Shown here: one piece after another, positions 3,728 to 4,126 of the stretch
How the letters are laid out: every line of letters begins with the position of its first letter
Numbering within the stretch: the stretch's first letter is position 1
IMG/VR virus record: IMGVR_UViG_648276659_000011
From: a virus
Taxonomy: Monodnaviria > Loebvirae > Hofneiviricota > Faserviricetes > Tubulavirales > Inoviridae
Length of the DNA: 4,677 bases
Direction: 5' to 3' (one strand)
The notes under the pieces: generated by a model
What the model saw: only the letters and a program-made list of their open reading frames with translations
Databases searched by the model: none
What the model was told of the DNA's origin: nothing
Translations under genes and position numbers: made by a program

Positions 3728-4126
3728 ATGATGAACAAAACAGTGTATGTACCAAGCTACTTCCAGCCTATCTACAAAGAAGTAACCATCAAAGTTCCTA
3801 CCGGAAACACAAAACGATTCCTGGGTCTCATCGACATTGAAGAAAAAATCCGAAAAAGAGAAGTTATTCAGGATGGCTGGTCTGATTGCCAGATTGACGG
3901 GGAAAGACTCAATGAAGATGTTGGTCGAGCCATTAATAAACTTAATCGGGAAGGGTATGAGGTTATTTCAATAACCCCTGCTACCTCAGGAAGCTGGGCT
4001 TATAAATATAAACAAAACAGTATTCGTAATGGAAACGGTGATGGCAGTTATGGATATGGTTACGGTTATTCATACACCGAAGGCGTTATGATTCTGGCAA
4101 AGAAAATTGAGAAAGAGGACGTCTGA
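3728..4126 (+). CDS. Hypothetical soluble protein with a Gly-Tyr repeat; possible DUF4177-like core
   Basis: 132 aa, RBS AAGGG upstream. No TM segment or signal peptide. 'REGYEVISI...TEGVMILAKKIE' is reminiscent of DUF4177 proteins (from memory, weak). Low-complexity insert 'NGNGDGSYGYGYGYSYTEG' at 4028-4084. Stop lies 2 nt before the next start. Confidence 0.6.
   Translation: MMNKTVYVPSYFQPIYKEVTIKVPTGNTKRFLGLIDIEEKIRKREVIQDGWSDCQIDGERLNEDVGRAINKLNREGYEVISITPATSGSWAYKYKQNSIRNGNGDGSYGYGYGYSYTEGVMILAKKIEKEDV

Follow-up and report, generated by a model that had tools for sequence, protein, structure and literature searches.

A conserved glycine-tyrosine hairpin protein carried as cargo at the dif-type end of a defective Escherichia coli filamentous prophage, and its possible role in host protection

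What a small protein with a run of alternating glycines and tyrosines does at the end of a filamentous prophage, and whether such a run is a mutable repeat or a fixed part of the protein, are questions raised by a 4,677 nucleotide (nt) stretch of inovirus DNA (IMG/VR record IMGVR_UViG_648276659_000011), called here, at its full length, the window. The gene at issue encodes 132 amino acids (aa) and heads a cassette that lies between an rstR-like repressor and the phage attachment site (attP), where it is followed by a gene for a 120-aa membrane protein and by an open reading frame (ORF) of 22 aa. The explanation favoured here, at a probability of roughly 0.45 and so somewhat short of even odds, is that the 132-aa protein works autonomously to protect the host, as an accessory protein of the type found in defence islands or as prophage morons, and would act by binding at the base of a hairpin that bears a ladder of tyrosines.

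The gene is real and is under purifying selection. A sequence-only reading of the window had placed it as a plus strand ORF for a 132-aa protein, with all its coordinates correct, and RefSeq lists the same coding sequence (CDS) in E. coli MS 196-1 (WP_000981410.1, 100% identity); homologues begin MNK, and so the second ATG (3731) is a possible true start. Copies within the Enterobacterales differ chiefly at synonymous sites (pS 0.27-0.81 vs pN 0.03-0.19), with a dN/dS of 0.03-0.12 where dS is estimable, dS being otherwise saturated. The gene is present in 14 of 5,426 complete E. coli genomes, and 12 complete E. coli genomes, unrelated in origin, share one sequence over all 399 nt, a fact which excludes an assembly artefact as the source of the repeat. 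Two copies elsewhere in the family (L025, L027) are frameshifted. That the protein is uncharacterised holds true, its only full-length family match being phrog_15841, listed as of 'unknown function' (profile hidden Markov model E 2.8e-92, residues 1-132 on profile positions 1-132), an entry that says nothing of function or structure. Members of the family are for the most part borne on chromosomes or islands, not on viruses; there are 129 homologues in the 90% database and 458 clusters at 50% identity (E<=1e-3, among 1.84 billion), and the family ranges over Proteobacteria, Bacteroidota and Actinomycetota. Searches of NCBIfam and PADLOC-DB v2 gave no match for the protein (PADLOC none at E<=1, and likewise for the 120-aa protein), a sequence profile search of the PDB gave nothing meaningful, and nothing was found in the literature under the protein accession. 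Natural fusions of the family to a Zn-ribbon, a transmembrane tail or a PDZ-like region give no consistent clue. The protein itself has no hydrophobic segment (maximum KD19 0.45) and, by reading, no recognisable signal peptide or leader at its N-terminus, and charge across the family is near neutral (median pI 6.7, net charge 0). Membrane insertion was rejected for lack of a hydrophobic segment.

The Gly-Tyr segment (N101-G119, NGNGDGSYGYGYGYSYTEG) is encoded at 4028-4084, exactly as given; the near-tandem codons for which a length varying by slippage had been proposed (tat gga tat ggt tac ggt tat tca tac) lie at 4048-4074. As DNA the repeat is imperfect: Tandem Repeats Finder (TRF) scores it at 32, under the default threshold of 50 (period 6, 3.8 copies, 76% matches), no exact direct repeat of at least 8 nt was found in it, and it is a poor slippage substrate. 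In an alignment of 38 sequences, drawn from Enterobacterales, Aeromonas, Pseudomonas, Vibrio, Methylobacter, Castellaniella, Chryseobacterium, Epilithonimonas and Elizabethkingia, G111-Y-G-Y-S-Y-T-E-G-V120 shows conservation of at least 90% and is the best-conserved part of the family. Invariant from Enterobacterales to Chryseobacterium are Y112, S87, G88, S52, D57 and G58, with L61 also listed as invariant, and the residues just before the motif, at the hairpin tip, are variable with an insertion of 0-20 residues. Synonymous codons for the motif differ by lineage, and thus it is at the protein level that the motif is maintained. Counted over 220 family members as aromatic-Gly units before [YF]-S-[YF]-T, the unit number runs from 1 to 8 with a mode of 3 (one unit in 28 members, two in 57, three in 114, four in 18, six in 2 and eight in 1) and varies over that range only between distant clusters. 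Rare slippage-type indels do separate close relatives, P0019 being P0015 plus one YG unit and P0023 being P0010 minus two units. With a core conserved across phyla, varied codons and no length polymorphism in the 12 E. coli genomes, the proposal of slippage-driven length variability falls; what the comparison of repeat lengths across homologues does bear out is a slow evolutionary change in hairpin length, and not a repeat that is variable within strains. Conservation, codon variation and strain identity together argue that the Gly-Tyr run is a selected structural or binding element and not a slippage-driven repeat.

How the run is placed in the protein is seen in an AlphaFold2 (AF2) model built with the family alignment (mean predicted local distance difference test, pLDDT, 79.7). 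A strand at residues 3-9 is followed by a low-confidence basic hairpin at 16-48 (hairpin A), a very confident helix at 58-74 (pLDDT 96-97) and strands at 77-101 and 104-126. Hairpin A is missing in short members of 88-99 aa, which match profile positions ~40-126 only, all else being kept. The Gly-Tyr run makes up most of the returning strand of a second hairpin (hairpin B), where Y108, Y110, Y112, Y114 and Y116 would lie on one side and G109, G111, G113, S115 and T117 on the other; the outgoing strand S-W-A-Y-K-Y-K alternates likewise. The invariant S52, D57, G58, L61, S87 and G88 flank the helix start and the turn into the hairpin, and from sequence and secondary structure we infer that these residues and the hairpin base make one predicted conserved site. 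No solved fold in the PDB matches the AF2 model by Foldseek (all E>=0.2, template modelling (TM) score <=0.35), and no match was found among the BFVD viral structures. Among the best of the Foldseek matches, all non-significant and a structural analogy only, are uS10, uL22 and the Cas5/Cas7 RAMP proteins, in which a small alpha/beta core carries a long protruding beta-hairpin as an RNA-contacting element. Unlike what nucleic-acid binding by analogy with uS10 and uL22 would lead one to expect, the 132-aa family is not basic, and such a role was set aside as unsupported by charge (median pI 6.7). A beta-pore made from the alternating Tyr and Gly is pure speculation and was not adopted.

As proposed, the 132-aa protein would be a small soluble cytoplasmic protein with an alpha/beta core (a strand, one helix and two strands), the two final strands of which run on into a long beta-hairpin. 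Its down-strand would be the nearly invariant (aromatic-Gly)n-[YF]-S-[YF]-T-E-G, with tyrosines on one face and glycines and the serine on the other, and a conserved ligand or target would probably be bound at a pocket to which three elements contribute, namely the hairpin base GYGYSYTEG, the turn T-S-G and the helix cap S-D-x-x-I-D-G. Carried as moron cargo in a hypervariable attP-proximal region downstream of the rstR-like regulator, the protein would act alone, without depending on the 120-aa membrane protein as a partner, and may protect the host, for example by phage exclusion or defence.

The core had also been likened, tentatively, to that of the small DUF4177 (PF13783) proteins, and here the outcome is divided. 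In the AF2 topology the Gly-Tyr arm does come after the core strand EVISIT and before the last strand EGVMILAKK, and it occupies the position of the DUF4177 beta2-beta3 loop. By strand order the AF2 model is compatible with the strand-helix-strand-strand topology described for DUF4177, and the likeness consists of a helix followed by an 'LN..G[YW]E[VL]' strand and of a terminal 'hydrophobic-x-K-[KR]' strand. Residues 49-88 are the only stretch that resembles DUF4177, at a Pfam E of 0.009 and 16.7 bits vs a gathering cut-off of 25; weak matches occur in 11 of the 38 aligned members (best E 0.0036), none at the cut-off. Comparison by hhalign of the family with a 9-sequence Clostridium DUF4177 alignment gives a probability of 2.5% over 28 columns (the helix and next strand only), and with the DUF4177 protein PEG 446 alone 1.5%, the comparison set being narrow (one Clostridium subfamily, seeded from PEG 446) and a remote kinship being possible. 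Set against DUF4177, the 132-aa family adds an N-terminal hairpin of ~35 residues, has a last hairpin 30-50 residues longer, and has an invariant Gly-Tyr motif that is absent from DUF4177. What stands is thus the weak stretch at 49-88 and a compatible predicted topology; membership of the family, with scores below threshold, does not, and 'DUF4177-like topology' is a fair description only.

Evidence bearing on function comes mainly from the company that distant relatives keep. A recognised defence system lies within ~4.5 kb at ~10-11 of ~26 distinct non-enterobacterial loci (~40%, scored by eye with no background computed), a proximity that we judge to be well above expectation. The family gene directly follows a Wadjet-type DUF3584 operon (L010), comes after an NgoMIV restriction-modification pair (L011) and after an Endonuclease_NS gene near an AriA/OLD-like ATPase (L026), and lies 45 bp upstream of RADAR rdrA-rdrB (L050). 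Elsewhere it is near an ABC-3C system (L017), a KAP NTPase, PDC-S49 (L020), Septu PtuA and a PLD nuclease (L022), or Tiamat TmtA (L024), HATPase and SNF2-SWIM genes being further neighbours in defence contexts. In an integrative and conjugative element (ICE) of Elizabethkingia (Bacteroidota) the gene is beside YhcG and a type I restriction-modification system, and in an integrative element of Castellaniella it is accompanied by TacA and a GNAT toxin. In an Aeromonas prophage whose portal, terminase and GPO genes are of P2 type, it belongs to a cargo stretch ~3.8 kb from the portal gene, with a TIR gene and a faint HEPN match in the same stretch. Three Flavobacteriales loci (L022, L024, L050) have the family gene ~3.5 kb from an ORF for an outer-membrane receptor of ~1,000 aa, a SusC/SusD pair being confirmed in L050 only; the setting suggests a defence-system integration hotspot in which the family gene is constant and the defence system changes (Septu and PLD, Tiamat, RADAR).

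The position of the gene in the window is likewise that of cargo. The window represents a defective filamentous prophage, similar to CUS-1 and YpfPhi, that is inserted at dif in E. coli; across positions 3100-4677 it has 100% identity with the E. coli MS 196-1 chromosome, in which two tandem copies of the defective prophage (L001) lie between the ydeP-ydeT region and hipBA, with an exact dif site at the left end of the array. At the window end one of two dif-like sites has an XerC arm identical to that of E. coli dif and a degenerate XerD arm, and the inverted sites as single-stranded DNA (ssDNA) fold to a forked hairpin (-23.4 kcal/mol, z -5.5). Forked ssDNA hairpins made of inverted dif-like sites are the attP architecture of Xer-dependent inoviruses such as CTXphi, and 4581-4674 is by this analogy the CTXphi-style folded attP of an Xer-dependent inovirus. 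The cassette fills the space between the regulator and att, unrelated genes replace it in sister phages (L003, L052), and this repressor-to-att slot is a small-gene cargo hotspot. In both YpfPhi and CUS-1 an rstR-like repressor is followed by two ORFs without homologs, of unknown function and differing between the two phages (PMC4266046). YPO2271/YPO2272 of YpfPhi and orf1/orf1a of CUS-1 occupy the same slot, on the repressor side by the dif-type attachment site, and the position of the regulator here corresponds to that of YPO2273/rstR (PMC4266046). The end slots of such Xer-integrating inoviruses hold 2-3 small function-unknown genes that are swapped between otherwise near-identical phages; the likeness to the published YpfPhi and CUS-1 end ORFs is one of slot only. 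In Vibrio inoviruses the hypervariable regions reportedly abound in defence systems (PMC12715192), and those of the CTX-I phages (pHVRs) lie between zot and xafT, unlike the cassette here, which comes after rstR (PMC12715192).

The features of the window and the parts of the 132-aa protein are collected in Table 1.

Table 1. Features of the window and segments of the 132-aa protein, with positions in the 4,677 nt stretch
Feature	Position	Strand	Basis or remark
132-aa soluble protein, first gene of the cassette, phrog_15841 family	3728-4126	+	ORF, RefSeq CDS, homologues
Hairpin A, residues 16-48, basic, variable	3773-3871	+	AF2 strands 16-31 and 35-48, pLDDT 61-68; net charge +3
Residues 49-88: S-D-x-x-I-D-G-E-x-L motif, single helix, core strand Y-E-V-I-S-I-T-P-x-T-S-G	3872-3991	+	
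Hairpin B, residues 89-119: up-strand SWAYKYK, variable tip NGNGDG, down-strand SYGYGYGYSYTEG	3992-4084	+	
Zot-type assembly ATPase	83-1108	-	ORF and Pfam
DUF2523 protein	1112-1399	-	ORF and Pfam
pIII-like ORF	1412-2866	-	fused to first ~80 residues of gpII/Phage_CRI replication protein (2730-3023)
rstR-like helix-turn-helix (HTH) regulator, upstream of the cassette	3191-3643	+	HTH_3, HTH_26; phrog_3557 transcriptional regulator, E 1.4e-68
Hairpin with 14-bp stem, between regulator stop and 132-aa start	3660-3690		by the homology break at 3643
120-aa helical membrane protein	4129-4491	+	remote ColE1 immunity homologue; AF2 helices
22-aa hydrophobic ORF, unannotated, MSMETGVAIIILLVIVGKLIGL	4503-4571	+	GAGGA Shine-Dalgarno; ORF kept in relatives
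Two inverted dif-like sites flanking a GC stem (4610-4640)	4581-4602, 4647-4674		end of prophage copy

Several further observations concern the prophage as such. In both L001 copies the gpII N-terminus (~80 residues) runs into the pIII-like ORF (1412-3023, minus strand), a fusion which indicates that the remainder of gpII has been deleted together with the ssDNA-binding protein and coat genes, all of them present in the intact relatives L002 and L003; the defective unit has been tandemly duplicated nonetheless. The cassettes in the same slot of the two sister E. coli prophages (L003:6633-7444 and L052:3590-4795), downstream of the same or a related regulator, are unrelated to the one here: one consists of a 140-aa multi-pass membrane protein and a 110-aa soluble protein, the other of a 140-aa protein, a zinc-binding protein of the ECs_2282 family and a 159-aa protein. 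A homology break falls at the regulator stop (3643, query position 544), where homology to the alternative-phage cassette sets in, by the strong hairpin listed in Table 1; the hairpin may serve as terminator or attenuator, as operator, or as a boundary for recombination. Save for that hairpin, promoter and terminator scans were at chance level, and an Rfam search of the window gave no match.

Against a protective function stand several points. No PADLOC defence model matches the 132-aa protein, in which no enzymatic or effector domain can be recognised and which is on the small side for a combined sensor and effector. Conservation as strong as that of its sequence is unusual for arms-race proteins. 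The association with defence systems could merely mirror residence in mobile and variable regions, and at two loci (L046, L049) the gene stands alone among housekeeping genes. The clustering of the conserved residues in a pocket is predicted from sequence and secondary structure. Neither the DNA nor the protein has a match among the 50,697 phage records of INPHARED, and only 7 of 2.9 million IMG/VR viral contigs carry the gene, at least 5 of these 7 being enterobacterial inovirus prophages.

The other explanations differ mainly in whom the 132-aa protein is thought to act with, or against. One alternative, an unlikely one, is that it forms a two-component module with the 120-aa protein and functions only together with it, either as a soluble sensor or regulator of an abortive-infection membrane effector or as a protein that the membrane protein neutralises. 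The spacing is as tight as had been described, the 120-aa ORF starting 2 nt past the 132-aa stop, and a gap of 2-8 nt with conserved gene order is found in E. coli, Brenneria, Pectobacterium and a Pantoea plasmid; in the sister prophages the same slot also holds a small membrane and a small soluble protein, and at two loci the pair persists without phage structural genes. These are in Pectobacterium odoriferum (L004:7406-8933) and on plasmid pAR24_B of Pantoea agglomerans (L032:3791-5841), where cassette and att are kept with no phage structural genes. The former lies ~570 bp from the chromosomal dif (1 mismatch) and the latter adjoins a plasmid dif-like site (4 mismatches), and both keep the phage att region, as either a minimal Xer-mobilised element or a cargo-only prophage remnant. 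All the non-phage pairs are thus by dif-like sites and may share one Xer-linked ancestor; the paired contexts probably do descend from one such element, and with a common descent of that kind they are not independent evidence for cooperation. In Salmonella enterica an in-frame deletion (P0025) has left a natural fusion of ~88 N-terminal residues of the 132-aa protein and ~45 C-terminal residues of the 120-aa protein, from which it follows that the two genes were adjacent there and that the cassette decays in that host.

What tells against the two-component module is the distribution of the two families. The 132-aa family has more than 20 loci at which a 120-aa neighbour is missing, the 120-aa gene being found beside Enterobacterales copies only and being absent from all non-Enterobacterales loci, and the 120-aa family in its turn has solitary members on plasmids (PromA, Xylella), in a Xenorhabdus inovirus and in Variovorax. 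An enterobacterial inovirus (L057) has the 132-aa gene followed by an unrelated 103-aa protein, and at L046 and L049 the 132-aa family gene is solitary. An all-against-all comparison of genes within 3 kb found no partner recurring across distant taxa, the recurrent neighbours being the 120-aa gene (Enterobacterales), YhcG (one Flavobacteriales clade) and a queA-side hotspot (Pseudomonas). The obligate co-occurrence that a toxin-immunity or toxin-antitoxin pair would show is not found. Unpaired loci, the lack of a recurrent partner and L057 together indicate that the 132-aa protein is autonomous, and the suggestion that the two genes act together is not supported, pairing being confined to some Enterobacterales Xer-linked elements, both families occurring mostly alone and the partner in L057 being a different one. 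Co-expression with the membrane protein here is likely; an obligate cooperation is not likely.

The description of the neighbour as immunity-like proved apt. Against the ColE1 immunity ORF, taken from plasmid ColE1 for comparison, the 120-aa protein aligns by hhalign with 95.1% probability (E 3e-8, 94 columns), and by BLASTP with E 2e-5 over its N-terminal 56 residues. It is similar to ImmE1 in length and in helical membrane architecture, AF2 giving three to four long helices (13-35, 43-71, 80-96, 98-119), and shares the motifs YY-x-[RK]-x-x-x-FG and L-x-PY-[AS]-[RK]-[FY]-x-x-E. Its setting differs from that of ImmE1 in that the protein has no Pfam match and in that neither a colicin nor a lysis gene was found in the window or in L001. 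The 120-aa family is found on broad-host-range plasmids, inoviruses and chromosomes, including those of non-enteric bacteria without ColE1-type colicins; among its carriers are PromA-type, Xylella, Xanthomonas, Vibrio and other plasmids, a Xenorhabdus inovirus that lacks the 132-aa gene, and Variovorax. The sequence comparison supports its assignment as an orphan, remote homologue of the colicin E1 immunity protein. In Variovorax sp. Root318D1 (L028:711-6384) the 120-aa homologue is downstream of a ShlB/POTRA two-partner-secretion transporter amid small unannotated genes, a context hinting that the family may also serve as immunity in loci of the contact-dependent inhibition type. The 22-aa ORF is kept with substitutions in E. 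coli L002, which has an 82%-identical cassette, and in Pectobacterium L004 and Brenneria L005, where the variant is MALETAVGIIFLLVIVGSYIGIGK; it is likely to be the third gene of the cassette, its product being perhaps a small membrane peptide or toxin-like micro-protein.

A neighbour of this kind invites the view, held here to be about as improbable as the two-component one, that the 132-aa protein is itself an orphan immunity protein or inhibitor. It would then neutralise a cytoplasm-acting toxin or nuclease of a competitor, or restrain a neighbouring nuclease, and the cassette would be an 'immunity island' of one soluble and one ColE1-type member. The presence of a colicin E1 immunity homologue with no colicin gene fits this, as do the small size, solubility and lack of an enzymatic domain of the 132-aa protein, and at some loci nuclease genes are indeed adjacent on the same strand (Endonuclease_NS 69 bp upstream, YhcG/DUF1016 54 bp upstream, NgoMIV, and a faint HEPN match downstream). 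The adjacent nuclease families are however all different, and many loci have none. Immunity proteins also normally diversify fast and are toxin-specific, in contrast to the strong purifying selection and the motif invariant across phyla that are seen in this family.

Less likely still is a counter-defence protein that aids the establishment of mobile elements, for example as a sponge for immune nucleotides or an inhibitor of defence acting through its tyrosine-rich face. Known nucleotide sponges use an aromatic-rich surface, which lends the idea an analogy only, and the family is found on prophages, ICEs, other integrative elements and plasmids as a small, non-enzymatic and highly conserved protein. 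However, there is no fold similarity to solved anti-defence proteins, the gene is absent from the 50,697 phage genomes mentioned above, many copies are in chromosomal islets without an evident mobile element, and its place in the filamentous prophage is in the module on the repressor side and not among the replication and assembly genes. A secreted bacteriocin-like toxin, for which the 120-aa protein would provide immunity, is very improbable and is largely refuted by the stand-alone distribution of the gene. It draws on the antibacterial activity reported for the 66-aa DUF4177 protein PEG 446 (PMC11322243) and on the immunity-like gene downstream, but DUF4177 membership falls short of threshold, no hydrophobic segment fit for a signal peptide and no recognisable leader are present, and the gene usually lacks an immunity-like neighbour, which for a toxin would be lethal or pointless. 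Least probable of all is a contingency locus in which slipped-strand mispairing changes the length of the Gly-Tyr codons to give functional variants or phase variation, as the rare +YG type indels in otherwise identical proteins and the 1-8 units across the family might suggest, because units of 6 nt make every length change in frame, the DNA repeat is imperfect, the core motif is nearly invariant, and the strain comparison, with an identical gene in 12 E. coli genomes, essentially refutes it.

The reading of the 132-aa protein as an autonomous host-protective protein is thus retained, and a wider and more doubtful version of it can be put forward. The family may be a new autonomous single-gene immune or counter-immune module of mobile elements, built on a tyrosine-ladder hairpin that has no solved counterpart and has the invariant base GYGYSYTEG, conserved from Proteobacteria to Bacteroidota and Actinomycetota; in filamentous phages, beside an orphan colicin-immunity homologue, it would make up a compact 'protection cassette' at the dif-type end.

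That variable accessory cargo is carried at the end of Xer-integrating inoviruses is known already; the family described here is uncharacterised and has a hairpin decoration lacking a solved counterpart. End genes of the CUS-1/YpfPhi type have for more than 10 years been listed as without predictable function, in phages that affect the fitness of E. coli K1 and of Yersinia pestis, and one such end cassette can now be seen in context, as a constrained soluble protein whose broad family often neighbours defence systems, together with an orphan relative of the ColE1 immunity protein and a hydrophobic micro-ORF. If not protective, the gene is an ordinary conserved hypothetical one; as a defence or counter-defence factor it would add a very small and structurally unusual family to the catalogue. 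A misreading is also corrected, in that an amino-acid repeat which looks prone to slippage can be the most conserved functional element of its protein.

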